From an uncultured bacterium (GTDB lineage: Bacteria; Zixibacteria; MSB-5A5; JAABVY01; JAHJOQ01), in contig CBDUQR010000055.1 of the NCBI GenBank assembly GCA_965369655.1, positions 1 through 15,860 on the forward strand: 15,860 nt of DNA. Direction: 5' to 3'. Positions within the stretch are counted from its first letter, which is position 1; each line of letters opens with the position of its first letter. Under the pieces are notes generated by a model. That model saw nothing but the letters and a program-made list of their open reading frames with translations. It did no database searches and had not been told where the DNA came from. This document shows positions 908 to 15,860 of the stretch, piece by piece. Both the position numbers and the translations under genes were made by a program.

Positions 908-911
908 CCTG

Positions 912-942
912 GTAGCCCACCCAGAGTGCAACGTCGGGTGGG
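912..942 (+). repeat. GTAG-type REP-like palindrome between convergent genes (may also act as a terminator)
   Basis: GTAG (912-915) is followed immediately by CCCACCC (916-922), a 13-nt loop and GGGTGGG (936-942). It begins 4 nt after the stop at 907. Confidence 0.6.
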
Positions 943-966
943 ATTCTCCTTTCCAGCAATCCCTGT

Positions 967-1674
967 TCACGGATGCAGCCTGACCATCACACGTCTGACA
1001 TATTCATCCAGTGGTATCTCATCTGTCTCGCCGGTGAAGATATATATCCTGATGCACTTGGTCACACCGCCGAGTACTGTCCTGCCGTATATATAGCGCT
1101 GTCCTTCTTTCGCGGTCACAGGGAATTCGACATTGCCGTATTTGTCGATGTGAAGATCGGGAACCTCTTCCTCATACTCACCCTCAGCAGCATAGAACAG
1201 CCTCGAGCCGGGGGAAATCTTGAATTTGACCATCATGGTCAGCCCGCCTTCGAGACGTACAGTACGATATTCCATCCTGAGAACCGGATCGTATTCTTCG
1301 AACACAATCTGACGATTAGCATCACTGACAGTTGCGCCATCGTATCGCACTTCACGGAGCTGAGGAAGCGCCCTGATCTCATTGTGCATCCTGTGAATGT
1401 CATTCAGTGACGGAACCGTGAACTCGCAGTAAATCGAGTCATCTCCGACATCCATGAAGACACGAAAATCCTCCATCCGGTATTGCTCGATAAGTTGCTC
1501 TAATCTGTCGGCGTCCTCTTTCTCAGTATTTCTGAAAATATACTCGCATCTGATTGCTGAAATCTCACTCGGCGTAAGCTGCCGACGGGATGTGCACTGA
1601 ACGAGCACGGCACAGAGAATCATGACAGCAAACAGAGTCAATTCAGAAAGCGTAACTGATCGATGAATGGTCAT
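967..1674 (-). CDS. Hypothetical exported/membrane-anchored protein (possible lipoprotein)
   Basis: 235-aa ORF with an N-terminal hydrophobic stretch (LTLFAVMILCAVLVQC). It is co-oriented with, and 45 nt downstream of, the Smr gene. Confidence 0.75.
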   Translation of the reverse strand: MTIHRSVTLSELTLFAVMILCAVLVQCTSRRQLTPSEISAIRCEYIFRNTEKEDADRLEQLIEQYRMEDFRVFMDVGDDSIYCEFTVPSLNDIHRMHNEIRALPQLREVRYDGATVSDANRQIVFEEYDPVLRMEYRTVRLEGGLTMMVKFKISPGSRLFYAAEGEYEEEVPDLHIDKYGNVEFPVTAKEGQRYIYGRTVLGGVTKCIRIYIFTGETDEIPLDEYVRRVMVRLHP

Positions 1675-1719
1675 ATACTGATGTTAGAACGTGAGACAAG
1701 GCGAGTCAAGAAAAACATG

Positions 1720-2019
1720 CTATCTGAGATCGACCACAGTTGCGCCCCATGACCCGCCCGATCCGCCTTCATGCCGATACGACACGACCCTCGGATGTTT
1801 GTCGAGAATCGAATGCACGATGCGCCTGAGCGTTCCGGTTCCCTTACCGTGCACAATCCTGATCTTCGTGATCCCGCGCCTTAGGCACTCGTCGATATAC
1901 TCCGGCACAAGATCCTTGACATCGCTCGGAGCGAATGTGTGCAGATCGAGTGTACCGTCGATCGGGTATTCACCGGTAGTTTCGTTGATCAATCGAGAGC
2001 ATCCCTTCTTGCCTGTCAT
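1720..2019 (-). CDS. Stand-alone Smr/MutS2 C-terminal domain protein (putative endonuclease)
   Basis: Contains LDLH, IRIVHGKGTGTLR and GGSWGATVV, the typical Smr motifs. The start is more likely ATG 2019 or TTG 1992 than 2082. Confidence 0.9.
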   Translation of the reverse strand: MTGKKGCSRLINETTGEYPIDGTLDLHTFAPSDVKDLVPEYIDECLRRGITKIRIVHGKGTGTLRRIVHSILDKHPRVVSYRHEGGSGGSWGATVVDLR

Positions 2020-2812
2020 CGCTGACTCTTTCAACAACACTCGATGCAGGCAGGGCAACCGCAATGACAGCAGCGAAAACATTCCTGCATCCGGCCCTGC
2101 GCAGTTCCAATGCCGCTTCGTTCAATGTAGCGCCGGTCGTCGTGACGTCATCGATAAGAAGGATGCGTTTGCCGGCGACCACATCCGGTCTTGTGACGGA
2201 GAATGCTCCCTTCATATTCTCGACACGCTGCCTTGCGGTCAAACCTGTCTGATCTTTCGTTCGCTTGACTCTTTTGATAAGATCATCTGCGACCGGCAGT
2301 GATGTCTCATCAGCCAGAGATTGCGCAATGACGAATGACTGATTGAACCCGCGCTGCCGCTGCCTGATCCAGTGCAGCGGGATCGGCGCTATCAGATCAA
2401 TCAGCCCAATCGCTTTGGCGTCCCTAAGTCTCGATGCGAGCATTTTCGACATCCTGCCTGCAAGCGGCAGAAGAGAATGATACTTCAGTCCGTGAACGAC
2501 GGATCGAAAGAAGTCATCAAAAGTCCCGCAGGTGAAGAGTACGGAGATTGGCGATTTGTTCTCGCAGGATTTGCACCCCGCGCGAAGGTTTACGATTTCC
2601 GACCGGCATTCAGGACAGAGCGGCTCCTCTACTTCGCTCGCAAGGTCAAGACATGTCTCACAGTAATAATCGTAGCCTCTTGACAGCCTCGATCCACAGC
2701 AGATGCACTCGGGGTAGAAAACGAAATCGAGCAGGTCATCGACGAGTATTCGAGCACGTGTCGTCGTCGCGCTCTGGCGAATCGATTCCTGTATCCGCGT
2801 CGATATACTCAT
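1970..2812 (-). CDS. comF: ComF family protein (double zinc ribbon + phosphoribosyltransferase domain)
   Basis: CxxC pairs (CICC, CETC, CPEC, CKSC), PIPLH...RGFNQS, and the PRPP-binding motif LLIDDVTTTGATL. Confidence 0.93.
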   Translation of the reverse strand: MSISTRIQESIRQSATTTRARILVDDLLDFVFYPECICCGSRLSRGYDYYCETCLDLASEVEEPLCPECRSEIVNLRAGCKSCENKSPISVLFTCGTFDDFFRSVVHGLKYHSLLPLAGRMSKMLASRLRDAKAIGLIDLIAPIPLHWIRQRQRGFNQSFVIAQSLADETSLPVADDLIKRVKRTKDQTGLTARQRVENMKGAFSVTRPDVVAGKRILLIDDVTTTGATLNEAALELRRAGCRNVFAAVIAVALPASSVVERVSDDRQEGMLSIDQRNYR

Positions 2813-2815
2813 GTA

Positions 2816-3391
2816 TCATCTGTCCGCGCTGTCGATGCGCATTGGGGAATGCTCTTTTAGAAAACTACGCACACGATCGGCGAGATCACTGTCAGGTTCG
2901 ATAGCGAGATACTCGTTCCAGTAGTGCAGCATGAGCGAATCATTGCCGAGCCCGCCATGTACTATTCCGAGGTTGAAACGCGCGATTGCGTGATCGGGTT
3001 GAAGTGCCAGAGCGATCTCGAAATCCACAAGAGCCTCACCGAGTTGATCGGTCGCAAAATAGCAGGACCCTCGGTCGACTCTCACATCGACGAGAGTGGA
3101 ATCGATTTCGAGCACGCGCGAGTAATTCGAAATCGCCTCGGGATAACGCTGGGCATCCATGAGATGATTGCCGGTCTCGATAAGTTGCTCTATATCGTCG
3201 AGACGCTCAAGTCCGGCTGCTGACGCAGTAGATTCTGCACTTAAGTCAGCGCCGGTTCTGTTCAATACGAAATATCCCGTGTATCCTATGGCCGCGAGGC
3301 TCAGGACCAGAATGAGTATCGTCATATCCCGCCTGAGATTCGAGCGGTCTGCACTCGCCTGCGAACCATGCTTTTCGTCTGTCTTGCTCAC
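2816..3391 (-). CDS. Membrane-anchored tetratricopeptide repeat protein
   Basis: One N-terminal transmembrane segment (ILILVLSLAAIGYTGYFVL) and about three TPR-like repeats (e.g. ALALQPDHAIARFNLGIVH). AGGAGG lies upstream of the GTG start. Confidence 0.85.
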   Translation of the reverse strand: MSKTDEKHGSQASADRSNLRRDMTILILVLSLAAIGYTGYFVLNRTGADLSAESTASAAGLERLDDIEQLIETGNHLMDAQRYPEAISNYSRVLEIDSTLVDVRVDRGSCYFATDQLGEALVDFEIALALQPDHAIARFNLGIVHGGLGNDSLMLHYWNEYLAIEPDSDLADRVRSFLKEHSPMRIDSADR

Positions 3392-3418
3392 CCGCGCCTG
3401 CCTCCTTAACAGTAATTG

Positions 3419-5587
3419 CTAATCATCGCCGCCGCCTTTGGTTCTCCAGATCGAAATCACACCCGTAGTACGTTTGACTCTCTTGATTACTCTCTTAAGA
3501 TGGCTGAGATTTCTGATTTCTATTACAAGCTTGCCGTGCGCCATGCCTTCTTCGGACTTCATCACTGCATCGCGTATGTTCACATCTTCCGATGCGAGTG
3601 AATCGAGCACATCCCGCAGTGCGTTCTTCCTGTCCTCGACAACAAGTTCAAGCCTGACGAGGAATGAGTCATCCTTCTCGACATCCCACTCGACCTCGAT
3701 GAGCCGCTCCGGATCGTCTTTCATCCTGAGCGCGACTTCACAGTCGGCGCGATGAATCGAAATTCCGCGTCCTCGAGTAATGAAACCAATTATCTTTTCC
3801 CCCGGCACTGGCTGACAGCACTGCGCGAACCTGAACATCATATTGCCGAGTCCCTGGATTCTGATGCCTTTCGTACCCCGCGCTCTGTCGAGGAATTTCC
3901 TGACGATGGTCTCTTTCGGAGGTTCCTGCTCGGGGGGATAGAGACGGGAGAGTACGTTTGTCGCGGAGACGTCGCCCTGCCCGACGCCTGCATAGAGCCC
4001 TTCGACTGAACTGAAAGAGAGAGCCTGTGCAGAATCGAGGAGCTGGTCATCGGTTGGGAATTTCAATTTCTTTTTCCGCAGCGCCTTCTCGATCATCTCT
4101 TTGCCGAGGCTGACCGACTGTTCGAATCCCTTTTGTTTCAGGAACCTTCTTATCTTTGAGCGCGCCTTCGATGTCTTGACAACTTTCAGCCAGTCCTGGC
4201 TCGGTTCCTGATTCGGTGATGTTACAATCTTTACCTCATCTCCGCTGCTCAGCCGCGAAGCGAGAGGTACCAGCTTGCCGTTGACCTTCGCGCCCGTACA
4301 CTTCAGCCCGATGTTGGTGTGGACCGCAAAAGCAAAATCGAGAGGGGTTGCTCCGGCGGGTAGATGCTTCAACTCGCCGTTGGGAGTGAAAACAAACACC
4401 TCGTCATGGAACAGATCGATCTTCAGGTATTCGAGGAACTCGGCTGGATTCGTCATGTCCTTCTGCCAGTCGAGGACTTCCCGGAGCCAGTTGAACTGTT
4501 TGTCGGTCGGGTCGACCTCTTTCTTCCCTTCTTTGTAGAGCCAGTGCGACGCGATCCCATACTCCGCCGTGTAATGCATCTGCCTCGTCCTGATCTGAAT
4601 CTCAAGAAGTTTCCCTTCAGGACCGACCACATTCGTGTGAAGCGACTGATAGCCGTTCGCCTTGGGGTTTGCGATGTAGTCGTCGAATCCGATCCCGGAC
4701 GGTTTGTATATCTGATGCACTATGCCGAGAGCGGCATAGCACTCCGCGACTGACTCGACAATCACGCGTATGGCAAAAAGATCGTAAATCTCTTCGAATT
4801 CTCTCTCCTTGGTCTTCATCTTTCTCGCAATCGAATCGATAGATTTCGCGCGGCCATATATCGACGATTTTATGTCGCTCTTTTCAAACGCCGCGCGCAA
4901 CGGCGTCACGATTTCAGCGATGTATTTGTCTCGCTCCGTGACGGTTTCATCTATTCTACTCGTGATGAAATCATAGGTCTCGCGGTCGAGGTACTTGATG
5001 GAGAGATCCTCGAGCTCCCATTTGACTTTCGCCATCCCGAACCTGTTAGCAAGCGGCGCATAGACGTCGTATGTTTCCTCGGCGATGCGCTTCTGTTTGT
5101 CCTCGGGAAGGAAATCGAGCGTTCGCATATTGTGAAGCCGATCCGCCAGCTTGATGAGGATCACCCGGATATCGTCAGCCATCGACAGAAGCATCTTGCG
5201 GAAATTCTCAGCCTGTGATTCGACAACAGACTGTGCTCGAAAAGTTGATATCCTGGTGACTCCATCGACCAGCCCGGCGATCTCTGGTCCGAATTCACGC
5301 GTGAATTCCTTCATCGTAATGCCCGTATCCTCTACGACATCATGCAGCAATCCCGCGGCAATGGTGGCTGAATCGAGATGCTGCTCGGCGAGGATAAGAG
5401 CGGTCTGCACAGCGTGCAGCATGTAAGGTTCGCCTGAGAGACGCTTCTGCTGGGCGTGGGCTTTCTCGGCAAACTTGTAGGCATTCTTCAGGAGCGAAAT
5501 ATCGACATTCGCATTGAACGCTTCGACCGCGATCATGAATTCGGCCAGATTGACAAGCCCGTATTTTTCACCCGCCGACACAGGCAT
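3419..5587 (-). CDS. rel: Long RelA/SpoT homolog, bifunctional (p)ppGpp synthetase/hydrolase (HD-SYNTH-TGS-ZFD-ACT)
   Basis: HD motif GLLHDVVED, IKLADRLHNMRTL, synthetase motifs YGRAKS, DLFAIRV, GYQSLHT and EIQIRT, TGS motif GATPLDFAFAVHT, CCQPVPGE, and a C-terminal ACT domain. Confidence 0.97.
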   Translation of the reverse strand: MPVSAGEKYGLVNLAEFMIAVEAFNANVDISLLKNAYKFAEKAHAQQKRLSGEPYMLHAVQTALILAEQHLDSATIAAGLLHDVVEDTGITMKEFTREFGPEIAGLVDGVTRISTFRAQSVVESQAENFRKMLLSMADDIRVILIKLADRLHNMRTLDFLPEDKQKRIAEETYDVYAPLANRFGMAKVKWELEDLSIKYLDRETYDFITSRIDETVTERDKYIAEIVTPLRAAFEKSDIKSSIYGRAKSIDSIARKMKTKEREFEEIYDLFAIRVIVESVAECYAALGIVHQIYKPSGIGFDDYIANPKANGYQSLHTNVVGPEGKLLEIQIRTRQMHYTAEYGIASHWLYKEGKKEVDPTDKQFNWLREVLDWQKDMTNPAEFLEYLKIDLFHDEVFVFTPNGELKHLPAGATPLDFAFAVHTNIGLKCTGAKVNGKLVPLASRLSSGDEVKIVTSPNQEPSQDWLKVVKTSKARSKIRRFLKQKGFEQSVSLGKEMIEKALRKKKLKFPTDDQLLDSAQALSFSSVEGLYAGVGQGDVSATNVLSRLYPPEQEPPKETIVRKFLDRARGTKGIRIQGLGNMMFRFAQCCQPVPGEKIIGFITRGRGISIHRADCEVALRMKDDPERLIEVEWDVEKDDSFLVRLELVVEDRKNALRDVLDSLASEDVNIRDAVMKSEEGMAHGKLVIEIRNLSHLKRVIKRVKRTTGVISIWRTKGGGDD

Positions 5588-5609
5588 GGATTACATCCAA
5601 TGCGTTTGA

Positions 5610-6710
5610 TCACATCTGCAAGGCGATGCGATTGTACTGTTCAACTACTTCCCTGCACACGATGTCGATGTCGTAGTGCGAAGCCCGATTCGCGGCCTCA
5701 GTCGCCGTTGTCTTTCTCAACTGCTCGTCATCGAGGAGAGTTGCAAGAATTCTGTATAATTTCTCGTCATTTTCGACCGGAAACACAAACCCGGTCCTGG
5801 CTTCCTCGACGAAATCGAGCGGCCCGCCACAGTCGGATACAACAAGCGCAGAACCGCAGGCTCCGGCTTCGATCAAAGACGTTCCGAGTCCCTCGGATCT
5901 CGACGACAGGACGAATACGTCCAGCAGCGAATAGAACTCCGGCATCTCGTCAACATGTCCGAGCAGCATCACCCGATCTCCGACTTCGATGAACTCGATC
6001 AACTTCTCGATTTCAGTTCTCCGCTCGCCATCTCCCGCCACCAATAATATATAATCGTCGCGATCGTAAGATAGTTTCGAGATTGCATTCACGAGAGTGT
6101 CGATATCTTTATTATGGTCGAGGGCGCTCGCAGTTCCAATATAGAATTTGCGATCCGGTATCCCATATCGCGCTCTGAAGCCGTCGGTCTCGACGCGCCC
6201 GAAGTAGCGCATATCGACTCCGCTCGGAATGTGAACGACCTTTCTGTCGGAGACTCCCCAGTCGAGAAGTTCCCCTTCGACCGCGGTTGAGACAGCAATA
6301 AACAAAGCTATGCTCGGGCTCGTGTATTTGAAGCGGGATACTAAATTCTTCAGTTTGCCGCTGATGACTCTTCGCGTCACGACGACTCGGATTCTGTCAT
6401 CGATAAACGCTGTGGTCAGACCGATATTGTGCCCGTGTGAATCGTGAGCGTGCACGATGTTGTATCCCATCTCCGAGCAAACCCGTCGCATACGCATGCT
6501 CTCGCCGACCACATCGAATCCTCGGTACTTGATCGGGAATGTGTTCACGCCTATGTCGCCGAGTCGTCTTTCCAGTTCTCCGCCGGATGCTACAACACAG
6601 CCCGTATCGATCCCGTTCTCTTTCAGGTATCGAGCAAGGTAGAACACCTGTCTTTGTCCACCTCGGAACGATTCTCCCAGATCGATATGCAGCACGCCGT
6701 AACGGTTCAA
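5610..6710 (-). CDS. GT4 family (GT-B) glycosyltransferase, probably LPS core biosynthesis
   Basis: GGQRQV near the N-terminus, IVHAH, and FVLSSRSEGLGTSLIEA (EX7E motif). TTG start overlaps the GT2 stop. Confidence 0.92.
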   Translation of the reverse strand: MNRYGVLHIDLGESFRGGQRQVFYLARYLKENGIDTGCVVASGGELERRLGDIGVNTFPIKYRGFDVVGESMRMRRVCSEMGYNIVHAHDSHGHNIGLTTAFIDDRIRVVVTRRVISGKLKNLVSRFKYTSPSIALFIAVSTAVEGELLDWGVSDRKVVHIPSGVDMRYFGRVETDGFRARYGIPDRKFYIGTASALDHNKDIDTLVNAISKLSYDRDDYILLVAGDGERRTEIEKLIEFIEVGDRVMLLGHVDEMPEFYSLLDVFVLSSRSEGLGTSLIEAGACGSALVVSDCGGPLDFVEEARTGFVFPVENDEKLYRILATLLDDEQLRKTTATEAANRASHYDIDIVCREVVEQYNRIALQM

Positions 6711-7453
6711 CGATTATCACCTTTCAGCGCGTAACGATATTTCATGAACTGCCCGACCGCGGTCAGGACCGCGATCCACAACCCGGTGACGCCGTCGGCA
6801 AAGCCACGCTGGATCAGCAGCTTCTTGAGAAAGTGAACCGGTGGGCCGACAGCGATACGGACGAATGAGAATTTTCCTCCAGCCCTGATGTATTTCTCTG
6901 CTCCGAGTCCCGCATAGATTGCAAGCTTCCTGGCGTATGCTTTCATGTCGGGATAGCTGTAATGCAGCAGCAACCCTGTCAGCCGGCATGATTTGCCATC
7001 GCATGAAACGCTTTCATGCAACATGTCATCCGAGAACATGCCGGAATCTCTCCTGAACAACCGCAGCACATACTCCGGGTACCAGCCGGAATGCATCACC
7101 CAGTTCCCGCACAGATTCGTCACTCGCGGCAGTTCATAACCGGCAACGCCGTTATCCGATGATACGGCCTGTTCGATTTCAGACCTGAGCTTTTCGGTCA
7201 ACACCTCGTCCGCATCGAGAGAAAGGATGAACTCGGTATTCGCGAAAGTGCAGGCTTCATTCTTAGTCGGTCCGAATCCCTTCCACTCGACCAGAGTGAC
7301 TTCGGCGCCATGATCGGCGGCGACCTCGCGCGTTCGATCGCTCGATCCGCTATCGGCAACGATCACGCGGCCAAGAGACAGCGCGCTGTCGACGCATCTC
7401 CCAATATTCTCCTGTTCGTCTTTAGCGATTATCACTGTGGTAACTCTACTCAT
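6707..7453 (-). CDS. GT2 family glycosyltransferase (WaaE/LgtF-like beta-1,4-glucosyltransferase)
   Basis: VIIAKDE, DSGSSDRT, WKGFGPTKN, LSLDADE (DxD) and LHE...LLHYSY. The likely start is ATG 7453, which overlaps the GT9 stop, rather than 7504. Confidence 0.92.
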   Translation of the reverse strand: MSRVTTVIIAKDEQENIGRCVDSALSLGRVIVADSGSSDRTREVAADHGAEVTLVEWKGFGPTKNEACTFANTEFILSLDADEVLTEKLRSEIEQAVSSDNGVAGYELPRVTNLCGNWVMHSGWYPEYVLRLFRRDSGMFSDDMLHESVSCDGKSCRLTGLLLHYSYPDMKAYARKLAIYAGLGAEKYIRAGGKFSFVRIAVGPPVHFLKKLLIQRGFADGVTGLWIAVLTAVGQFMKYRYALKGDNR

Positions 7454-8591
7454 GCGCACCGGCCCGTTCGGGTCTCTTCTCAGCGACCAGCCTGCAGAAT
7501 GCATCGAAAACCGACGTCACATCGAGGAATTCTATGCGATAGAAATCGGGCGAGTTGATTGCTCTCACGCATGGATTGAACGGTCGCCAGACTGCGAAAT
7601 TCTCCATGTTGCCTACATACATAACCAGCGTGGGCAAATCGACACAACTCGCGATGTGACCGATCGATGTGTCCGGAGTAATCAGAAAATCGAGATGCTT
7701 CAACAATCCGGCGATCTCGCGAATCGAATACCCGGCAGGTAGACAGTATATCCGCTCCTCACTCGTTTCCTTAAGCTTGTCCATCTTCCAGCGCTCGCCC
7801 GGAGCCGCCGAAAGCACAAACGCAGCGTCCGGAAACCTGCCCTGAAGCATCGGCAGCAGTTCAATATACTTCTCGACCGGCCATGTCCGCGCAGGTCTCC
7901 CTGCTGAGAGATTGATTCCTATGAGAATATCGTGGTGCTCCCGCAGCGGCCTGAGAAATGACAGAGCCTTGCGTTCGTCATCATCGACCAGGAACATCTT
8001 CGGGATCAGATCGCAATCATGAAGCGATATATCGAACAGATTCAGCACAGACGCCGTCGATTCGATTATGTGCGGCCCGCTCACTGTTGGCGGATCAACA
8101 GTGAGATCGAAAAACTGTGCCAGCCTTGGTTTGCCCGCGCCGAGCTTGAACGACCCGGGACCGATCAGGGACAACAGAATCGTGGCGGTCACAGATTCGC
8201 CTACCGTCATATCGACAATCGCGTCATACTTGCGTCTTCTCATGTCGAAGATGCGTCGCACATCTTCGAGAGGCTTCTTCCTGTAGAACATTATGCGCGA
8301 TATGCTGGGATCATGCTGGATAATCATGTTGTTGTCGCGACCGCAAAGGACGTCGATTTCGATGCCCGGATAGAACTGTTTCAGGCTGTGGAAGACCGGC
8401 AGCGATATGATCATGTCGCCGAGCTTGTCGTGCCTGACAAAGAGCACTCGTCGAATTTTCTTCGGATCAAATTCCCTGAATGCTCGACGCACTCCGCCAA
8501 ACACAACGAACCAGACGAGCACTATCCACTTAAAGCCGATCTCGATGCTCTTCAGAAATCGGTCGGTGCGCTTTACCGGATCCAATCCCAT
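7446..8591 (-). CDS. GT9 family glycosyltransferase (ADP-heptose:LPS heptosyltransferase-like)
   Basis: LFVRHDKLGDMIISLP, RTWPVEKY and LITPDTSIGHIA, the GT9 signature segments. Confidence 0.92.
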   Translation of the reverse strand: MGLDPVKRTDRFLKSIEIGFKWIVLVWFVVFGGVRRAFREFDPKKIRRVLFVRHDKLGDMIISLPVFHSLKQFYPGIEIDVLCGRDNNMIIQHDPSISRIMFYRKKPLEDVRRIFDMRRRKYDAIVDMTVGESVTATILLSLIGPGSFKLGAGKPRLAQFFDLTVDPPTVSGPHIIESTASVLNLFDISLHDCDLIPKMFLVDDDERKALSFLRPLREHHDILIGINLSAGRPARTWPVEKYIELLPMLQGRFPDAAFVLSAAPGERWKMDKLKETSEERIYCLPAGYSIREIAGLLKHLDFLITPDTSIGHIASCVDLPTLVMYVGNMENFAVWRPFNPCVRAINSPDFYRIEFLDVTSVFDAFCRLVAEKRPERAGAHE

Positions 8592-10455
8592 TGCTGTTTA
8601 CCCTGAACTGCAGATTATACAATTTCTGATACAAACCGGACGAGGCAACCAGTTCGTCATGCGTACCTGTCTGTACGAGCTTGCCCTTATCCAATACGAG
8701 GATCTTATCTGCATGCAGAATGGTCGAGAGCCTGTGCGCGATCACCAGCACTGTCCGCCCGACCATCAGCCTGTCTATCGCTTCCTGCACAAGCTGCTCC
8801 GATTCCGTATCGAGCGCGGATGTCGCCTCATCGAAAATCAAAATCTCCGGGCTGCGCAGTATCGCGCGGGCGATCGCTATGCGCTGACGCTGTCCGCCTG
8901 ACAGCATAACGCCCCGGTTGCCGATAGGCGTAGCGTAGCCCTCGTCGAATGACGAGATGAATTCATCCGCGTTGGCAATCTTCGCCGCGCGCATGATGCC
9001 CTCTTCATCGACACCGTCCAGAGCATACGAGATATTCGCGCCGATTGTATCGTTGAACAGCATCGTCTCCTGTGTGACGATTCCGAACAGCGATCTCAGC
9101 GAGTTGATCTCGACATCGCGCAGGTCCATGCCGTCGACAGTGATACTCCCCGCAGTCGGGTCATAGAATCTCGGCAACAGATCGAGCAGCGTCGACTTGC
9201 CCGCGCCGGACGGTCCCACAACCGCAACTATCTCCCCTCGCTTCACCTCGAACGAAATGTCGTGCAGGACTTCAGTGCCCTCGTTGTACTCGAACGACAC
9301 ATGATCATATACGATGCGATCCGTCAGGTTCCTGACTTCAACCGCACCCGGCTTGCTCGCAACTGTAACAGCCGTATCGAGAATCTCGAATATGCGGTCC
9401 GCGGCTGCGAGCCCTTCCTGAACCTTGATGTGCAGATTCGACAGCGATTTCGCCGGTGCGATTATCGAAAACATCGCGAGAATGTACAACATGAAATCCT
9501 CGGGCTGCAGGAGCGATGCCCCGAGGACCTGACTGCCACCATACCAGAGAATCACAACACTGGCTGTCGTTCCGAGAAACTCATTGACCGGGTTCGACAG
9601 AAGCCGCAGGCGAGAAATCTTGAGCAAAGCCACGAAATACTTCTGAGTCATTGCCATGAACTTCGCAATCTCATATCGCGCCGCACCGAACGCCTTGACA
9701 ACACGCATGTTAGATACGTTTTCTTCAAGCACTGAATTAACATCGGCCATGCACGACTGCGCCCGCGCCGAGACTCTTCTGAGAGCACGCCCGATGATGT
9801 AGATGATGATGAAACTGATCGGCAGCACCACGATTGTGACGATAGTCAGTTTCCACGAGAGGATCACCATGAAGCTGATGTAGATCAGGATCAGGAGCGG
9901 CTCTCTGATGATGCGATTGAATCCCTGGTCGAGCGATTCTCGCAGGACATTGACATCGTTAGTCACACGCGACAGGAGTTCCCCGGTTCGGGCGCCATGG
10001 AAATAGCTAAGCGACAGCCGCTGGAACTGAATGAACAGCGAATCCCTGAGATTCTTGATAAACTTCTGCTCGACATACGTCATCAGGTAGCCCTGGAAAT
10101 AGAAAAAGAGCGCCTTTGTAACAGCAAGAATAACGACCACTATGCACAGGTTTTTCAATGTCACGAGCGATGACGAATCGAGAATCAGACTGTCGACTAA
10201 TCCCTGCAGCGACTCCTTGACGCCTGACACGAAATCAGTTATGCCGCTGACAACTTCGCTGGATGAGGAAGCAGGATCGATTGCCGAGGCATCGACTTCA
10301 TCTGCTCCTCCTATGAAGAGCGTTCGCAGCAACGGTCCGATCATCCAGATGAGCGCACCCGATAGCAACGCAAACATCACCATACAGAAAGCGGACAACG
10401 TCACATGCTTCCAGTACGGCTTGACCAGACCAATTACACGTCTGAGAGTTGGCAA
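8530..10455 (-). CDS. msbA: ABC transporter fused permease/ATPase, MsbA-like lipid A-core flippase
   Basis: N-terminal transmembrane domain, Walker A GPSGAGKST, signature LSGGQRQR, Walker B IFDEATSALD and H-loop IAHRLST. It lies next to LPS glycosyltransferases. The TTG start is preceded by GAGGA. Confidence 0.88.
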   Translation of the reverse strand: MPTLRRVIGLVKPYWKHVTLSAFCMVMFALLSGALIWMIGPLLRTLFIGGADEVDASAIDPASSSSEVVSGITDFVSGVKESLQGLVDSLILDSSSLVTLKNLCIVVVILAVTKALFFYFQGYLMTYVEQKFIKNLRDSLFIQFQRLSLSYFHGARTGELLSRVTNDVNVLRESLDQGFNRIIREPLLILIYISFMVILSWKLTIVTIVVLPISFIIIYIIGRALRRVSARAQSCMADVNSVLEENVSNMRVVKAFGAARYEIAKFMAMTQKYFVALLKISRLRLLSNPVNEFLGTTASVVILWYGGSQVLGASLLQPEDFMLYILAMFSIIAPAKSLSNLHIKVQEGLAAADRIFEILDTAVTVASKPGAVEVRNLTDRIVYDHVSFEYNEGTEVLHDISFEVKRGEIVAVVGPSGAGKSTLLDLLPRFYDPTAGSITVDGMDLRDVEINSLRSLFGIVTQETMLFNDTIGANISYALDGVDEEGIMRAAKIANADEFISSFDEGYATPIGNRGVMLSGGQRQRIAIARAILRSPEILIFDEATSALDTESEQLVQEAIDRLMVGRTVLVIAHRLSTILHADKILVLDKGKLVQTGTHDELVASSGLYQKLYNLQFRVNSNGIGSGKAHRPISEEHRDRL

Positions 10456-10524
10456 ATCATCCTCGCAGTCGGTTCAAAAACAAAAGCCAGGCATACAATT
10501 CACGCCTGACAATGAACAACAATA

Positions 10525-10553
10525 ATACTACGCCGTCCAGCAAGATTTGTCAA
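10525..10553 (-). promoter_or_regulatory. Sigma70-type promoter for the msbA-rel operon
   Basis: TTGACA (10553-10548), a 17-nt spacer and TAGTAT (10530-10525), about 70 nt upstream of msbA. Confidence 0.7.
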
Positions 10554-10609
10554 CTACAGCGGTGGCAGTTACATAATTGCGATGAGCGATAGCGACGGGC
10601 GGCGGTCAT

Positions 10610-10663
10610 GGATGTCGAAACTGCGCAGTGCGCACGGCGCAGGACTCAAGGGTTTCGACCTAC
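10610..10663 (-). repeat. 54-bp REP-like palindromic repeat, copy 1 (GTAG type)
   Basis: Minus strand: GTAG-GTCGAAAC...inner TGCGC/GCGCA hairpin...GTTTCGAC-ATCC. It is 45/54 identical, ungapped, to 12366-12419 (hand alignment). Confidence 0.85.
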
Positions 10664-11613
10664 TCGACTGCTCGGCTGATAGAGTCTGCCGAATTCGATC
10701 CATCAACCCATCTGTTGTGTGCAATCCACCTGGAGTCGAGTTGTCCGCCTGTGAGAATGTGGTTTACCACCGGCGACAGAAAACGGACTATGTCAGTCAA
10801 TACATCAGCGAATTCACTGGGACAATCAGCGATGCCGGTGCGTTTAATAAAGGCAACCCATTGCTTTGTCTTATCAGAATTCTTGAGCCGATCCAGAAAC
10901 GTATCGAGTTTCTCGGGGAGATCGGTTGATCTCGTTGTGAATGTCGATTCAATCGCCTGTTGCAGCGATTGTCCTTCAAAATCGAAATTCTGAGAGAGAT
11001 ACCAGATATCGTAGAAATCCTTCATACGACTATTGACCTCTCCAAGAGACACCATCGCTTCGAACTTCTCTGCAATTGTGCTCTCGATAGGATATGTGCG
11101 GAGTTTGAAGCGCGGGAAATCCAGCATGATTGGATAGTCGACTTCGCGCGGTTCGAGCACGATGCTGTCACCGAATCCAATATCAAGCTGCATTGGGATC
11201 TCAGCATTTCCCAGATAGCCTTTGAATCTCATTCGAACGCCACTGTACTCATCGTGATCGTCAATGACATTTCCGACAACGGTGTCGGCATCGAATTCAA
11301 CGCCGTCAGGTACTACATCTGTGGCACATATCTCTCTGACGATAGCTGCAACATCATCGACGTCATTGGGCATCTCTCCTTTCATATCGATATCCCTCGT
11401 TGGTCTTGTCCGAGGAGCTTTGACAGCGACGAGTGCAAGGGCACCTTTGAGAATGAATTTGGACCTATGCTCTGACACTGACAGGCGATACAGGAATCTC
11501 TCCATCGCGTAGTATTGGAGAAGTTCCTGGAAAGGTCGTGATTCATCGTGCGCCTTGTTCAGAAGCCTCTGGTGAACGGAAGCGGCAACATCTTTGAGCT
11601 TTCGCTCACTCAC
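10660..11613 (-). CDS. AbiEii/AbiGii family nucleotidyltransferase toxin (type IV TA)
   Basis: ERFLYRL, FILKGA...RPTRDID (pol-beta-like NTase), QLDIGFGD, IAEKFEA and SRMKDFYD. The GTG start overlaps the antitoxin stop (GTGA). Confidence 0.92.
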   Translation of the reverse strand: MSERKLKDVAASVHQRLLNKAHDESRPFQELLQYYAMERFLYRLSVSEHRSKFILKGALALVAVKAPRTRPTRDIDMKGEMPNDVDDVAAIVREICATDVVPDGVEFDADTVVGNVIDDHDEYSGVRMRFKGYLGNAEIPMQLDIGFGDSIVLEPREVDYPIMLDFPRFKLRTYPIESTIAEKFEAMVSLGEVNSRMKDFYDIWYLSQNFDFEGQSLQQAIESTFTTRSTDLPEKLDTFLDRLKNSDKTKQWVAFIKRTGIADCPSEFADVLTDIVRFLSPVVNHILTGGQLDSRWIAHNRWVDGSNSADSISRAVE

Positions 11614-12242
11614 AGAATTGCCTCCAGATAAGGCTTAATGATCTTCTCGACCCGGCAGATACGCGCATACTCAAGCAGCTTGTCTACTCTCACTTTTTTG
11701 CGTTCGCGATACATCTTCAGTGCCTCGATAGCGACATCAAGACCGATCTTGTTGCGATGCTTGAAACAGTCGGCGATGGTCTTCTCGGGAGAATATACTC
11801 TGATCTTGAAACCATCAACTTCCATTATCTCTTGTCCAGGTTCAAATACTTTCGAGACGAACCTGAAGGTTTTCGTAGGTGGATTCTTAATTGAGGGATC
11901 TCTCCTGTTGTATGAGAAATCGATGGCAATGTATACATAGTGAGGTATCTGTAGCGTCATGTTATGAAGCTGAAGCGCTGATATGAGACAAATCACACCT
12001 GTGGGTACTCTCTTGAGCACTGATAGAATATCTGGCGTATTCACAGGTTCAGCGGAAGTCAGGCGGTAGACTCCCCTGCTCAGAGCCTCAATTTCGCCTC
12101 GATCACGCATCTCATACAGAGTCCAGGCATTTATTCCAGCCTTTATAGCCTCTGACGTGCGCATGATTCCGCCGTGCTTGAGGAATATCGCTGTTGCTGC
12201 TTCAGCGGCTTTGCCGGATTTCGGTTTCTTTCTAAGCATCAT
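11610..12242 (-). CDS. AbiEi family antitoxin / winged-helix transcriptional regulator (type IV TA)
   Basis: N-terminal wHTH (GEIEALSRGVYRL), GVICLISALQLH, YSPEKTIADCFK and IGLDVAIEALK. The likely start is ATG 12242 or 12239, since the longer ORF runs through the promoter and repeat. Confidence 0.92.
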   Translation of the reverse strand: MMLRKKPKSGKAAEAATAIFLKHGGIMRTSEAIKAGINAWTLYEMRDRGEIEALSRGVYRLTSAEPVNTPDILSVLKRVPTGVICLISALQLHNMTLQIPHYVYIAIDFSYNRRDPSIKNPPTKTFRFVSKVFEPGQEIMEVDGFKIRVYSPEKTIADCFKHRNKIGLDVAIEALKMYRERKKVRVDKLLEYARICRVEKIIKPYLEAIL

Positions 12243-12287
12243 ACTCGTATCGCCTGCATCCCAGTTTCTATTTCTAATTTCGTCTAT

Positions 12288-12347
12288 ATTATACAGATTG
12301 TCTATATAAAAGTGCTGAAAATAATGAATATTTTTCAGTAATTTTAT
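12288..12347 (-). promoter_or_regulatory. Putative abiE promoter/operator: imperfect 16-bp inverted repeat plus TATAAT
   Basis: ATAAAAGTGCTGAAAA (12306-12321) and TTTTCAGTAATTTTAT (12332-12347) are complementary at 14/16 positions with a 10-nt spacer. Minus-strand TATAAT lies at 12293-12288. Confidence 0.6.
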
Positions 12348-12365
12348 TGAGCCAGCAAAGCTCAA

Positions 12366-12419
12366 GGATGTCGAAACCACGCCCTGCGCGCTGCGCAGGA
12401 CTCAGGGGTTTCGATTTAC
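12366..12419 (-). repeat. 54-bp REP-like palindromic repeat, copy 2 (GTAA variant)
   Basis: Minus strand: GTAA-ATCGAAACC...CCTGCGC/GCGCAGG...GGTTTCGAC-ATCC. Direct repeat of 10610-10663, starting 4 nt after the vsr stop. Confidence 0.85.
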
Positions 12420-12423
12420 TTGG

Positions 12424-12831
12424 CTATTTCTGTAGGAAGCGGGAAACCTTATTCAATGTTCTCTCGGAATCTCTCTTTAGGGTATGTTCCCATACGACCA
12501 TTACGCTCCAGCCCATTGAGCGAAGCTCTCTAATCTTCCTCTGGTCACGTTGTCGATTTGTGGCTATTTTTTCTCGCCAAAAGTCACTCGACAATCTATG
12601 CGACCATCTTGGGAATTGCCAACCATGCCAGAAATCGCTGTGTATGAACACAGCTATCCTATCTGAAGGTCTGGCAATGTCTGGCGTACCTGGTGCTCTT
12701 TTGTAGTGTCTCTGGAAGTAGATTCCCCTTTTTCTTAGATGTGCAAAAACCATGAGTTCGATTTTGCTGTTCTTCGGGCGAACTCGACTCATCAAAGAGC
12801 TACGCTGTTTCTTTGTAAGATGGTCAGCCAT
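12424..12831 (-). CDS. vsr: Very short patch repair endonuclease
   Basis: MADHLTKKQRSSLMSRV, PGTPDI, VFIHSDFWHG, FWREKIATNRQRD and GWSVMVVWEH. It is in an operon with a C5 methylase. Confidence 0.95.
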   Translation of the reverse strand: MADHLTKKQRSSLMSRVRPKNSKIELMVFAHLRKRGIYFQRHYKRAPGTPDIARPSDRIAVFIHSDFWHGWQFPRWSHRLSSDFWREKIATNRQRDQRKIRELRSMGWSVMVVWEHTLKRDSERTLNKVSRFLQK

Positions 12832-12851
12832 TCAGCATTAGAAAACAGTTG

Positions 12852-14513
12852 TCAGTGTTCGGATTCGTCCTTAGATAATAAAGCTTCTATTCTCGCCTTT
12901 ATGTTATCATACACAGCAGTCAACTTTTTTTTTGCTTCTGTGGTCAATCTGGCGGTGTGCATTAGAGCATCTCTAATGGGTTTGTATTGCTTAGCATCAC
13001 TAGGTAGACAATTGTGGCTACCCCTCTGCTTATCCACTAAGTTAGCTAGACCCGGCATATCCAAGTAACTAGTGTCGTCGTCATTTTGCCTTATATCGAT
13101 ATTCACATTGCCGCTCATCTTATTGTTACTCTCTCGTTCTTTCCACATCTGAATTTGACTTTGTGCCTTGTGTGAAAGATCGATCGATTGTTCATGAATG
13201 TAACTTCTAATCAGATTCTCCGAAAGAAAACATTCCGCATATGAAACAAAATTGAATGCAGCATCTTCACTCAAGTCATCAACCCATACGTCGACTCTTG
13301 CCTTAGATTCAGAACCTTCAGGAAATTCATACTCCTCTGATACAGCATTGTATAATTCTTCGGATTTTCTTCGTTTCTTTGATATACTCTCATTATCAAC
13401 ATCTCCGTCTTTCTTATGCTTTCTTCGCAGAACATCCCATTGGTCCAAAACAATTCGCATTACATTCTGTCTAAACGTTTCCAAGAATTCCCTAAACTTG
13501 GGGTCATTTGAAACAATACTTTCCCGGCTGCTAGTAAATCTATCTGTATTATCATCTAATTCATCAAAATGTACTTGCCCATAAAGATAACTCTCGACGA
13601 GTCGAGCACTGGGTATATGCTTAAGAATATCCCTTTCCCTCAACCTACCGTTCACGAAAAGATCGACTCCCACTTTCTCATCGGTCGTAAGAATTTTGAG
13701 GTGACTTGGTTTTTCTACAGAAGCAATGAATCCGGTAATGGCATAATTCACATCTAATAAACTGATTTCTTCCTTAAGATTCGTGAGCTTTTCGTCAACG
13801 TATGGATCTTCTAAGTCATTAATTTTCCAGGCAAATTCGGTCTTGTCTGCAAGTTCGTTTAGATGGTCAAGTGTGATCTGTTCATCGTTGATGAATATAT
13901 TGAAAGAACTATCTAATAGAGAGAACCTGAAATACAGGGCAACGGTTTTTGTCAAGTAATCTAGTGTATTTCTAATCCCATCTTTCATGTTTTCAAAGTG
14001 GATAATCGTGCCGCGATCATGGTGTTTCGTGTATCGCTTGAAATTCGTTTCTTGCCATGTCCCTAATGAATACTCGCCTGGAGTTAAATCATCATTTATC
14101 GCTTGATCCAAACCAGAGTTGTCGATTACACCACCAACGTAATTACCGTGTTCTATTTTTGTTATTACAGTGATTTTGTCTGCGCAAGATAGCAATGCTA
14201 GTTTACCAATTCCCTTTCTACCAATGAACGGTCTCCCTTTTTCTGAAGTCACCACTCCGTCTCTTCGCTTTGAATACCCAATTTTCAGGAATTTGTTTTG
14301 GAAATCGCCATCTGACATCCCTATACCGTCATCCTTTATGATGAAACAATGCTCTTCTCTATCAACATAAATCCACACGTTGTCTGCATCAGCATCCCAG
14401 GCATTGGAGATCGCTTCTCCAAGTACGGTTACAAAGCTTCTGTACAGATTTCTTCCCAAGTGGTTGAGAACACTTAGAGATATTTCGAATGTGAACCTGT
14501 TATTGTTTGCCAT
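12852..14513 (-). CDS. GHKL (MORC/MutL/Hsp90-like) ATPase with a putative C-terminal HEPN domain
   Basis: HLGRNLY, N-box EAISNAWDA, G1 DDGIGM, G2 GRKGIG, G3 RGT, and a following S5-like region (LFVNGRL, LYGQVHFD, TSSRE). The C-terminal helical region has SENLIR and IRDALMH. Confidence 0.9.
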   Translation of the reverse strand: MANNNRFTFEISLSVLNHLGRNLYRSFVTVLGEAISNAWDADADNVWIYVDREEHCFIIKDDGIGMSDGDFQNKFLKIGYSKRRDGVVTSEKGRPFIGRKGIGKLALLSCADKITVITKIEHGNYVGGVIDNSGLDQAINDDLTPGEYSLGTWQETNFKRYTKHHDRGTIIHFENMKDGIRNTLDYLTKTVALYFRFSLLDSSFNIFINDEQITLDHLNELADKTEFAWKINDLEDPYVDEKLTNLKEEISLLDVNYAITGFIASVEKPSHLKILTTDEKVGVDLFVNGRLRERDILKHIPSARLVESYLYGQVHFDELDDNTDRFTSSRESIVSNDPKFREFLETFRQNVMRIVLDQWDVLRRKHKKDGDVDNESISKKRRKSEELYNAVSEEYEFPEGSESKARVDVWVDDLSEDAAFNFVSYAECFLSENLIRSYIHEQSIDLSHKAQSQIQMWKERESNNKMSGNVNIDIRQNDDDTSYLDMPGLANLVDKQRGSHNCLPSDAKQYKPIRDALMHTARLTTEAKKKLTAVYDNIKARIEALLSKDESEH

Positions 14514-15570
14514 AGGTTCTCACATGTTTCTTAATACTTCGCCCAATAATAACTCCCAATCGAACAGGAACGGCGTTGCCAATGAACTTGGCGATATGAG
14601 ACGTGATAATTGGGTTCTTCGGTTCTACAAATCTATAGCTTTTCGGAAATGTCTGGAGTAATGCGGCTTCACGTAGACTTATCGCTCTATTCTGTTCGGG
14701 ATGTCCGAATCGTCCGTTTCCAAGACCAACACATTGTGTTGTCATTGTAGGGGCTGGATCATCCCATCTCATCCGTCCATAAACAGAGTATCTATATGAC
14801 TTGCCAGACTCCTTCTTATGACATTTCAATCTGAGATTCTTATCCCAACTACTGGAGCTTCCTCCATTATGAGGAGTGGACTTTATTCTCTTCAGGTTTG
14901 TTGGATTTAGCTTGCTCGCTCTATGAAGGGTATCTCTATCACATACTTCTCCATCTCTTATCGGTGTCAATCCTTTTATGACATCTCTGACTGTTACCTT
15001 TTTATTCTTGTGCGTATTTTTTACAAGTTCGATTTCGCCTAACCTTGATGCGAGCAATACTAATCGTTTCCGACTCTGGGGTACTCCATAATCAGAAGCA
15101 TCGACAATCTCATACTTGTATTTGTAATTACATCGTTCAAGCGTTTCTATAAAAGTCCTAAAAATGGGGTACTTCTTCATGTCAGCAAGCCCGCCGACAT
15201 TTTCCATTGAAATAATATCTGGCATTGTCTCTTCTATTAGTTGAGCGAATTTCTCCAAAGGTTCCAATTGTTGCTTCGTTATTCTCCCTATACTCAATCT
15301 TGAAAAGGGCTGACATGGTGCACAACCGGCTAATACTCTAATTGTCTTTTTCTTGTTTCCAAATAATCTGTTGATATCTTCTGCTGTTACTTGGAGAATA
15401 TCCTCGTGAATGAACAGGGTCCTGTTGTTGTATTCATATCCATATTTGCAGGTATTATCATTATCTATTCCAGCTACGACATCAAGTCCTTCTTTAATGA
15501 AACCATGAGTAAGCCCCCCAATGCCGCAGAATAAATCAATGACTTTGATATTTAATGTGGTTTCTCTCAA
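14500..15570 (-). CDS. DNA (cytosine-5)-methyltransferase
   Basis: Motif I DLFCGIGG, IV GCAPCQPFS, VI MENV, VIII YGVPQSRKR, IX RAISLREAALLQTFP and X IGNAVP. The TTG start has AGGAG 8 nt upstream, and the gene overlaps the ATPase start. Confidence 0.96.
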   Translation of the reverse strand: MRETTLNIKVIDLFCGIGGLTHGFIKEGLDVVAGIDNDNTCKYGYEYNNRTLFIHEDILQVTAEDINRLFGNKKKTIRVLAGCAPCQPFSRLSIGRITKQQLEPLEKFAQLIEETMPDIISMENVGGLADMKKYPIFRTFIETLERCNYKYKYEIVDASDYGVPQSRKRLVLLASRLGEIELVKNTHKNKKVTVRDVIKGLTPIRDGEVCDRDTLHRASKLNPTNLKRIKSTPHNGGSSSSWDKNLRLKCHKKESGKSYRYSVYGRMRWDDPAPTMTTQCVGLGNGRFGHPEQNRAISLREAALLQTFPKSYRFVEPKNPIITSHIAKFIGNAVPVRLGVIIGRSIKKHVRTYGKQ

Positions 15571-15575
15571 GCCAT

Positions 15576-15604
15576 ATTCTCCTGCCCCACTTGGCTATTG
15601 TCAA
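15576..15604 (-). promoter_or_regulatory. Candidate sigma70 promoter for the methylase operon
   Basis: TTGACA (15604-15599), a 17-nt spacer and GAGAAT (15581-15576). The -10 is imperfect and overlaps the putative RBS. Confidence 0.45.
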
Positions 15605-15647
15605 AGGACACATTCTTAGCATAGGAAAACAGTGGGTTCCGAGCAAC

Positions 15648-15677
15648 AAAAAAACGGCGTTCTTACGAACGCCGTTT
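15648..15677 (-). terminator. Rho-independent terminator ending the 16S rRNA transcript
   Basis: Minus strand AAACGGCGTTC-GTAA-GAACGCCGTTTTTTT: a perfect stem, a GNRA loop and a 7-U tail. Confidence 0.9.
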
Positions 15678-15813
15678 CTATGTCAAATAGCATTGGATTT
15701 CTTCGAGATCGACTTCGACTATGATCTGAATGGCTTGTATGCTTTCGCGACCGAAGTCGTGAGGCACGATATAATCGCGATCGCACCATTCAGATGCACA
15801 CCGTGCTCCTTAG

Positions 15814-15860
15814 AAAGGAGGTGATCCAGCCGCAGCTTCCGCTACGGCTACCTTGTTACG
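15814..15860 (-). rRNA. rrs: 3' end of 16S rRNA gene (partial, continues beyond window)
   Basis: Minus strand CGTAACAAGGTAGCCGTAGCGGAAGCTGCGGCTGGATCACCTCCTTT: the end of h44, helix 45 with its GGAA loop, and the anti-Shine-Dalgarno CCTCC. Confidence 0.97.

Follow-up and report, generated by a model that had tools for sequence, protein, structure and literature searches.

The last 3.4 kb of a 15,860-nucleotide (nt) stretch of DNA from an uncultured bacterium carry three close-packed open reading frames (ORFs) on the minus strand, in the order C5 cytosine DNA methyltransferase (MTase), GHKL ATPase and Vsr endonuclease. The stretch as a whole, which we refer to as 'the window', is positions 1-15,860 of the forward strand of contig CBDUQR010000055.1, assembly GCA_965369655.1 (GTDB lineage Zixibacteria; MSB-5A5; JAABVY01; JAHJOQ01). 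The second protein, 553 amino acids (aa) long, joins an ATPase scaffold to what we read, with good support, as a Swt1-like HEPN domain. We give a probability of about one half to the view that the three genes form a mobile, modification-linked immunity or addiction cassette, in which RNA cleavage, gated by DNA methylation and controlled by ATP, would lead to growth arrest or abortive infection. The cassette is laid out as follows:

15570-14500, minus strand: C5 cytosine DNA methyltransferase, 356 aa, TTG start
14513-12852, minus strand: GHKL ATPase-HEPN protein, 553 aa
13914..14513, minus strand: GHKL ATPase domain, about aa 1-200 (from PF13589, invariant motifs and Foldseek)
13398..13913, minus strand: middle S5/transducer-like domain, about aa 201-372 (from the NF050001 match, the model and Foldseek)
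12855..13397, minus strand: C-terminal Swt1-like HEPN domain, aa 373-553 (from the model, motifs, hhalign, ESM Atlas and the predicted dimer)
13220-13206, minus strand: ENLIR motif (from the translation)
12974-12957, minus strand: RDALMH, R514..H519 (from the translation)
12831-12424, minus strand: Vsr very-short-patch repair endonuclease, 135 aa

The MTase and GHKL genes overlap by 14 nt, and a gap of 20 nt separates the GHKL gene from Vsr. A first-pass annotation of this DNA had described three tightly linked, AT-rich genes for a C5 MTase, a 553-aa GHKL protein and Vsr, and the coordinates, the family matches and the base composition (40.2% G+C across 12424-15570, vs 52.9% across the core genes at 1000-10455) bear this out. 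ENLIR and the R-x4-H motif lie exactly where it had placed them in the 553-aa translation, which holds YAECFLSENLIRSYI and IRDALMH.

In the mechanism we propose, the MTase would mark one DNA motif in the host genome, and Vsr would mend the T:G mismatches that arise from deamination of 5-methylcytosine. The 553-aa protein would be a dimeric GHKL+S5 clamp ATPase of the paraMORC3/R.HgiDII type, its PD-(D/E)XK DNase swapped for a Swt1-like HEPN domain. A two-fold HEPN dimer would unite both R-x4-H loops and the partner's E-N-x-x-R in a single composite site. Metal-independent HEPN RNases, which exploit the 2'-OH of RNA in their chemistry, work with a site of this kind. The clamp, alone or with the MTase, would sense unmethylated target DNA—in a phage, in a plasmid, or after loss of the methylase—and its ATP-dependent closure would turn on RNA cleavage, with growth arrest or abortive infection, rather than DNA restriction, as the outcome. 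Given the HEPN tail, the lack of a DNase domain and the near-obligate link to a methylase, an RNase effector appears to be the most economical reading. A more specific form of the proposal, which we hold tentatively, is that of a DNA-methylation-gated RNase in which the GHKL clamp would read C5-methylation, the HEPN dimer would act on RNA, and effectors would be exchanged like cassettes; since the family would in this form lack a dedicated DNA-reading domain, the MTase itself would be the specificity subunit, a Type III-like logic.

The identity of the C-terminal domain rests on its motifs, its predicted structure and its nearest relatives. Residues E432, N433, L434, R436, R514, H519 and T520 are invariant across 27 full-length homologues and 50 C-terminal domains, drawn from many phyla. 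R-x4-H, the conservation of which had been left for checking at first pass, is present in 195/195 homologues that cover the motif region; the residue after the R is polar in 192 of these and G in the other three. E-N-[hydrophobic]2-R occurs in 119 of 120 close homologues and in 64 of 75 distant ones. An AlphaFold2 model of aa 373-553, built from an alignment of 50 domains, is confident (predicted local distance difference test score, pLDDT, 91.3; predicted template modelling score, pTM, 0.83). The domain is helical, as the first-pass annotation had it, but about 180 aa long (373-553) rather than ~140. In domain numbering, two N-terminal helices are followed by helices 43-69 and 76-95, an insert (96-130), and helices 131-146 and 153-179. 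E60-N-L-I-R64 lies on helix 43-69, R142 ends helix 131-146, and H147 starts the loop that follows. In the published HEPN layout, an Rx4-6H motif ends helix 3, helices 2 and 3 are separated by an insert, and an Ex3[KR] motif lies upstream (PMC3710099); the placement of the motifs in the predicted structure agrees with this layout.

Within the HEPN superfamily, three independent leads point to the Swt1 clade. Of the 30 nearest clusters in the ESM Atlas, 21 are PF18731 (HEPN_Swt1), with a score of 0.94 and 191 shared features. Twenty-five PF18731 domains from the genomes of relatives display the same E-N-x-[IV]-R-x-[FY]-I and R-N-x3-H signatures, and hhalign pairs the window's family with these 25 at 73% probability (pair E 3e-5, 50 columns), in a register that aligns the R-x4-H motifs plus the preceding Y-x-D...L segment. 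The reading of aa 373-553 as a Swt1-like HEPN domain, which agrees with the first-pass call, is therefore well supported by the invariant motifs, the model, the Atlas and hhalign. A search of the window's genome with PF18731 gave no match. Being under the curated Pfam model, though Swt1-like by these other leads, the domains are best regarded as a Swt1-like HEPN family that is divergent and still unmodelled. Neither Pfam nor NCBIfam nor PADLOC has a model dedicated to the proteins with this tail. Membership of the Ymh HEPN family was considered and rejected: PF09509 matched neither our domain (E up to 10) nor the 50 members (E up to 1).

When two copies of the isolated HEPN domain are modelled together, they are predicted to form a homodimer. 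The interface score (ipSAE) is 0.89 (0.88-0.90 in three runs), against 0.00 for the best of three controls, a pass that may partly reflect likeness to known complexes, HEPN dimers having been solved. At least 77% of contacts are common to the runs, and the partner's pLDDT is 80 or higher. The mark was reached in calibration by 20 of 30 true homodimers, as against 1 of 23 single chains. The predicted interface is symmetric. Residues 146-152 of each chain take part in it, residue 146 meeting its own counterpart (146:146), and E60 and N61 face T148 of the partner, a modelled geometry that is that of the composite site expected of HEPN RNases. In the first-pass annotation, the HEPN site was supposed to arise on closure of the GHKL clamp; that supposition is not supported, as the isolated domain is predicted to dimerise alone (0.89 vs 0.00), and the HEPN dimer is thus likely to be constitutive rather than made by clamp closure. 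In MutL and Hsp90, the C-terminal domains serve as constitutive dimerisation domains; the HEPN domain probably dimerises constitutively in their place, and closure of the N-terminal gate, driven by ATP, would then probably regulate the HEPN site and not create it.

The remaining two thirds of the protein are an ATPase scaffold. PF13589 (HATPase_c_3) matches aa 27-121 at E 1.3e-18, and E33, N37, D61-G65, G98-K104 and G168-T169, which we take to represent GHKL motifs I-IV, are invariant in 27 homologues (alignment A1). The NF050001 model (BbrUII/HgiDII restriction enzyme) aligns its positions 1-370, of 659, to aa 7-372 with a score of 289.9 bits, under the family cut-off of 550 bits. Full-length members of that family score 654-753 bits and carry, in their last third, a conserved D...E-L-K, by sequence the PD-(D/E)XK signature; this motif has no counterpart in the window's protein. 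One HgiDII-family member also has a weak match to SduA_C (Shedu), at E 4.5e-4. A full-length AlphaFold2 model is of moderate confidence (pLDDT 70), with a mixed alpha/beta middle domain, and Foldseek aligns it over ~400 columns to the N+M domains of TRAP1/Hsp90 (E about 1e-11) and to MORC2 (1.5e-9). From the conserved GHKL residues and the NF050001, Hsp90 and MORC2 matches, the N-terminal two thirds appear to be a competent clamp ATPase of the paraMORC3/HgiDII GHKL+S5 type; aa 1-372, as judged by sequence, are the R.HgiDII/R.BbrUII (paraMORC3) scaffold without that family's PD-(D/E)XK nuclease. Membership of the HgiDII/BbrUII family itself was rejected (289.9 < 550 bits, a half-covered profile and no D...ELK), as was membership of Shedu type I-D (no PF14082 or other nuclease match in the window's protein). 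E. coli phage PhiR44_1 has a homologue, with 36% identity across the N-terminal part, that carries the annotation 'ParaMORC3' and adjoins 'Dcm'.

It is this scaffold that raises the main rival explanation, a DNA-cutting restriction enzyme. The GHKL-HEPN protein would cut unmethylated DNA, either by an unrecognised DNase or by recruiting Vsr, and the cassette would be a conventional, ATP-dependent Type II restriction–modification (R-M) system. We consider this unlikely. The N-terminal 370 aa are homologous to proven restriction enzymes, R.HgiDII and R.BbrUII, and the REBASE-derived REase_II models of PADLOC match at E 4.7e-41; the restriction-enzyme matches end, however, at about residue 372-394, before the nuclease part. 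The REase_II models thus cover only the N-terminal 363-394 residues, so that the PADLOC check proposed at first pass returned MTase_II for the methylase but REase_II for only part of the 553-aa protein. The HgiDII-family D...ELK motif is absent, and the residues that are conserved are those of metal-independent HEPN RNases (PMC3710099). The gene order and the obligate link to a methylase are R-M-like, and the equivalent gene of the NmeAI system is called a restriction gene (PMC3787668), although R.NmeAI is listed elsewhere as putative, 'R.NmeAIP' (PMC2441816). As for recruitment, E. coli MutL, also a GHKL protein, stimulates Vsr (as cited in PMC2292703); against this, 36 of the 80 loci described below lack a Vsr match (~9 of them have <700 bases downstream), and Vsr, not found in these 36, cannot be the obligate nuclease. 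Searches of the three cassette proteins with Pfam, PADLOC and NCBIfam returned no nuclease family besides Vsr, in line with the first-pass statement that neither a convincing PD-(D/E)XK or HNH motif nor a separate endonuclease gene was seen.

The same scaffold carries other tails. We built a tree (FastTree, SH-like supports only) of the GHKL+S5 module from 151 cluster representatives plus the window's protein, leaving out sequences of <500 aa or without most of the module. Its 86 rows comprise 58 HEPN-tailed proteins, 23 with PD-(D/E)XK tails, four with TIR-like tails and one other, and the tail labels require at least five changes on it. Two HEPN forms adjoin the nuclease clade, and the TIR-like ones emerge from within the HEPN forms at three points. 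The TIR-like tails are those of P0166, P0205, P0207 and P0213. P0166 is 55% identical over aa 4-368; the tail of P0205 matches PADLOC spbK at E 6.4e-22, and the nearest Atlas neighbours of the TIR-like tail are TIR_2 clusters, under the 0.9 mark. The TIR-like tail matches paraMORC4, the GHKL+TIR class of Iyer et al. 2008 (PMC2292703), which has the same scaffold with TIR, a presumed NADase, in place of HEPN. These repeated changes of tail mark the ATPase scaffold as a carrier that is fitted with a DNase, with a HEPN domain or with a TIR domain. HEPN and TIR domains are typical abortive-infection effectors, bringing about suicide or dormancy.

Such swapping bears on a lesser rival, non-suicidal restriction at the level of RNA, in which the clamp would sit on unmethylated foreign DNA, HEPN would cut only the transcripts emerging from it, and the cell would survive. 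This we rate below the DNA-cutting enzyme in probability. It shares the domain evidence of the RNase reading, and GHKL clamps encircle DNA in MORC and MutL. Against it, no result here tells cleavage of nearby transcripts from cleavage throughout the cell. The known HEPN effectors that stand alone, among them Csm6, RnlA and PrrC, act in trans on bulk RNA or tRNA, and the TIR-like alternatives on the same scaffold likewise point away from a local action and towards cell-wide effectors. HEPN domains in R-M systems have been discussed as a second line acting on RNA (Anantharaman et al., PMC3710099), and the Type IV systems known as CoCoNuT are also predicted to target RNA via HEPN (PMC11090510).

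The MTase matches PF00145 (E 4.8e-60, aa 8-348), PADLOC MTase_II PDLC03378 (E 4.7e-88) and TIGR00675 (139.5 bits), and the Cys of its catalytic PCQ motif is residue 86. Vsr matches PF03852 (E 1.9e-17) and TIGR00632 (99.9 bits vs a cut-off of 97.85). Among the family loci, the target-recognition region (TRD) of the MTase, the limits of which we assume from general motif positions, has a mean identity of 0.55, vs 0.50 and 0.58 for the catalytic core. As the TRD is as conserved as the core, the whole family probably shares one methylase specificity, a point that is silent on which of the proteins reads the site. We looked for a part of the GHKL-HEPN protein that co-varies with the TRD, and found only weak correlations (Spearman 0.07-0.19), with no domain standing out. 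The MTase and GHKL-HEPN trees are poorly congruent across the 80 loci L001-L080, although the genes overlap, which suggests frequent recombination between the cassette's two genes, as for NmeAI in meningococci, where the M and R trees are incongruent (PMC3787668).

The neighbourhood counts that follow refer to these 80 kept loci. Confirmed loci number 379 in all, in a collection where each of 185,579 species is represented by a single genome. A methylase homologue lies directly upstream on the same strand in 75 of the 80, elsewhere in the locus in three, and was not found in two; the link is nearly obligate. For Vsr, the counts are 34 loci with the gene directly downstream, 10 with it at another place in the locus and 36 without a match. 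Two exceptions are informative rather than contradictory. At L034 (1362-6656), the methylase and Vsr have a second, fragmented GHKL gene between them, which precedes the GHKL-HEPN gene. At L059 (950-5367), the GHKL-HEPN gene follows MZB-helicase-like and PLD nuclease genes, with no methylase on the 5.8-kb contig.

Vsr figures in one further rival, in which the cassette has no defence role at all: the GHKL protein would be a MutL-like accessory of a Dcm-Vsr pair, and the HEPN-like part would serve for dimerisation or nucleotide binding. This is very improbable. A functional MutL-Vsr interaction is on record (as cited in PMC2292703), and Vsr is present in 44 of the 80 loci, but it finds no match in the other 36. 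Strong dimerisation is predicted for the HEPN domain, yet dimerisation alone hardly accounts for the invariance of R, H, E and N in the composite site that the model predicts, and the same scaffold alternatively bears a DNase or an SpbK-like TIR domain. Some public records do name such proteins 'DNA mismatch repair protein'; the setting of the cassette, a low-G+C insertion not found in relatives and beside AbiE genes, speaks against this rival.

This is a large family and a very mobile one. Of the 8,000 candidates that were scored, at least 4,903 proteins match at E <= 1e-3; the best 120 homologues are 62-71% identical to ours and all but one are 540-568 aa long. Representatives of clusters at 50% identity give 4,122 matches at E <= 0.001, 314 of them at E <= 1e-30. 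The 379 loci span Patescibacteria, Omnitrophota, Planctomycetota, Chloroflexota, Bacteroidota, Proteobacteria and Woesearchaeota; identity stays at about 60% from bacteria of the candidate phyla radiation (CPR) to Woesearchaeota, and one copy is on a conjugative Paracoccus plasmid. Public records name the homologues just 'ATP-binding protein' or 'DNA mismatch repair protein'.

A number of results weigh against an RNase effector under methylation control, and several of them concern the HEPN domain itself. Searched against Pfam at E up to 10, the C-terminal domain returned noise only (DUF5382_C, YtzH); PADLOC gave 0 matches to it, NCBIfam nothing past the N-terminal match, and a PDB profile search 0. 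The C-terminal model is confident and HEPN-like, but in the structure comparison foreseen at first pass Foldseek found nothing in the PDB at E <= 0.001; the weak top rows, none at that threshold, included SsR10 and Csm6. The VIA-align rows include 1ylm (Z 7.7), 3o10 (7.6), 4nqf (7.2) and 7ae2 (7.1). No row reaches Z 8, and values up to 7.7 fall within the tool's range for unrelated helical bundles, so that fold identity is not claimable from VIA-align alone. At least 11 of the top 50 VIA-align rows are proteins that we take to be HEPN, with Z scores of 6-7.7, namely YutE (7.7), sacsin HEPN (7.6), HEPN toxins, Csm6 and AbiA. The hhalign alignment reaches the C-terminal 50 columns only. PF18731 (gathering score 27.5 bits) leaves the window's domain unmatched and finds one of the 50 members, at E 0.064. 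HEPN domains, moreover, can be non-catalytic, as in sacsin (PMC3710099).

Others concern the cassette. Distances between MTases and between GHKL-HEPN proteins correlate weakly (Spearman 0.16, 69 pairs), and the methylase and ATPase genes are therefore not strictly co-inherited. No DNA-recognition domain was identified, so the proposal does not account for how an unmethylated site would be read. In models derived from REBASE and in papers on Neisseria, the analogous gene counts as a 'restriction gene', and we found no experimental test of any GHKL-HEPN fusion in the literature searched, the coverage of which left out most subscription journals.

Parts of this design have been described before. 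Iyer, Abhiman & Aravind (2008) reported MORC/paraMORC GHKL ATPases in R-M operons with cytosine methylases plus Vsr (PMC2292703), and Anantharaman et al. (2013) reported Ymh HEPN domains fused to paraMORCs in R-M neighbourhoods and proposed them as functional analogues of PrrC and RloC (PMC3710099). Orlowski & Bujnicki treated R.HgiDII as a GHKL domain with an unassigned C-terminus and distinguished four other GHKL 'REase' (restriction endonuclease) subfamilies, including R.NmeAIP with a Hypoth_Ymh tail (PMC2441816). The first-pass thought that the arrangement might be undescribed thus does not hold: GHKL/paraMORC-HEPN proteins in R-M loci, and the analogy with PrrC/RloC, were published for the Ymh family, and the general design dates from 2013. 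The Swt1-like-tailed family is a separate variant of it. We found no description of this family in the same body of literature. The fusions given in the available parts of PMC3710099 include none of GHKL to the Swt1 clade, pMORC being given there only under Ymh, and one supplementary file of that paper makes no mention of pMORC, paraMORC, GHKL or HATPase.

The closest relative in design is the NmeAI type, which has the same order of C5 MTase, GHKL-HEPN fusion and Vsr. Its HEPN domain is Ymh (PF09509) where ours is Swt1-like, and the GHKL parts are 28% identical. The two MTases are 35-40% identical, the Neisseria enzyme being of the CCGG type, a level that is not decisive for specificity and does not establish a shared one. 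In N. meningitidis, M.NmeAI methylates C5mCGG (PMC4676702), and the locus is said to hold 'modification, restriction and patch repair' genes (PMC3787668). A record from N. gonorrhoeae (L112, 2589-5554) carries a C5 methylase, GHKL, Hypoth_Ymh (PF09509, E 2.9e-25) and Vsr. There the methylase is in two pieces, GHKL and Ymh are separate ORFs and Vsr is intact, and by its sequence this cassette looks decayed.

Other systems share one or two of the components. R.HgiDII and R.BbrUII (NF050001; paraMORC3 class) are homologous to our protein in GHKL+S5 over aa 7-372 and, like it, are partnered with a C5 methyltransferase; they are about 650-690 aa long and end in PD-(D/E)XK, whereas ours has 553 aa and ends in HEPN. 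Swt1-like HEPN domains (PF18731; Swt1/Abi2 clade) resemble ours in having E-N-x-x-R on one of the first helices and R-[ND]-x3-H towards the end. VcSduA of Vibrio cholerae (GHKL-Shedu, type I-D; formerly paraMORC3) likewise combines a GHKL clamp with a C-terminal effector and protects against phages, for which it needs both ATPase and nuclease residues; it differs in that the effector is a DUF4263 PD-(D/E)XK DNase, there is no methylase, and protection comes without host killing (PMC12137116). CoCoNuT Type IV systems are also of restriction type with RNA targeting predicted via HEPN (PMC11090510), but they use McrBC GTPases and helicases, and have no cognate methylase and no GHKL. In PrrC and RloC, too, an ATPase and a HEPN RNase are attached to, or checked by, an R-M system (PMC3710099); the ATPase there is of ABC type, not GHKL, and the likeness is one of analogy only; membership of the PrrC family was considered and rejected. 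PrrC is linked to a Type I R-M system and is activated by a phage anti-restriction peptide.

Should the HEPN tail prove to be a methylation-controlled RNase, the cassette would couple restriction-type marking of self and non-self to an effector of the abortive-infection type. The swaps of DNase, HEPN and TIR domains on one ATPase offer a natural experiment in the control of unrelated effectors by a GHKL clamp, and they bear on the biology of MORC, Shedu and Tiamat. Genome surveys would count cassettes of this kind as ordinary R-M systems. A block to transformation is a further possible effect, one that protocols mimicking methylation may or may not bypass.

The surroundings of the cassette contain the following features:

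15860-15814, minus strand: 16S rRNA 3' end, last 47 nt (model positions 1487-1533 of 1533, E 3e-13)
15679-15650, minus strand: terminator-like hairpin (13-bp stem and T run), after the 16S rRNA 3' end and before the operon
15604-15576, minus strand: promoter-like site TTGACA-17-GAGAAT, immediately ahead of the MTase start (by consensus alone, 10/12)
12380-11610, minus strand: AbiEi antitoxin (PF13338, E 9.9e-8)
11613-10660, minus strand: AbiEii toxin, a nucleotidyltransferase (PF08843, E 1.8e-43)
10510-10486, minus strand: terminator-like site after the AbiE pair

The cassette is a recent, horizontal acquisition. Its G+C content is low, AbiE genes are next door, and a search of 40 related genomes, among them a 94% complete one from the same genus, turned up no orthologue of the 553-aa protein. 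RelA/SpoT, lipopolysaccharide (LPS) glycosyltransferases and an MsbA-like ABC exporter make up the core genes at 1000-10455. The AbiEi/AbiEii pair lies directly downstream of Vsr on the same strand, has an intermediate G+C content (46.7%), and is probably a separate module of the same small defence islet. No tRNA, and no Rfam family at its gathering score, was found in the window, and so no integration site is definable.

Upstream, we take the hairpin at 15679-15650 as the limit of the cassette. The number of promoter-like sites in the region is not above that in shuffled sequence. A candidate for an upstream controller or helix–turn–helix (HTH) gene, an 89-aa ORF on the plus strand (15555-15824), was rejected: it belongs to no family, has no conserved counterpart in the 80 loci (best tblastn E 0.15) and, being antisense to the 16S end and the terminator-like hairpin, was treated as spurious. 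The 16S rRNA gene is cut by the end of the contig, which stops 290 bases upstream of the operon. Between the 16S end and the operon there is the terminator-like hairpin, but no spacer tRNA and no 23S gene. The 23S gene of this genome is on a separate contig (L114; G000:C6), where the 1.5 kb upstream has neither a tRNA nor similarity to the 16S end; the rRNA genes look unlinked, or else the assembly is broken at a repeat. Elsewhere in the same genome, two more proteins have a related GHKL N-terminus, in frames of 870 and 271 aa. Their matches to the window's protein are at G000:C25:13188-13703 (+), E 3.5e-12, and G000:C97:371-727 (-), E 1e-9.

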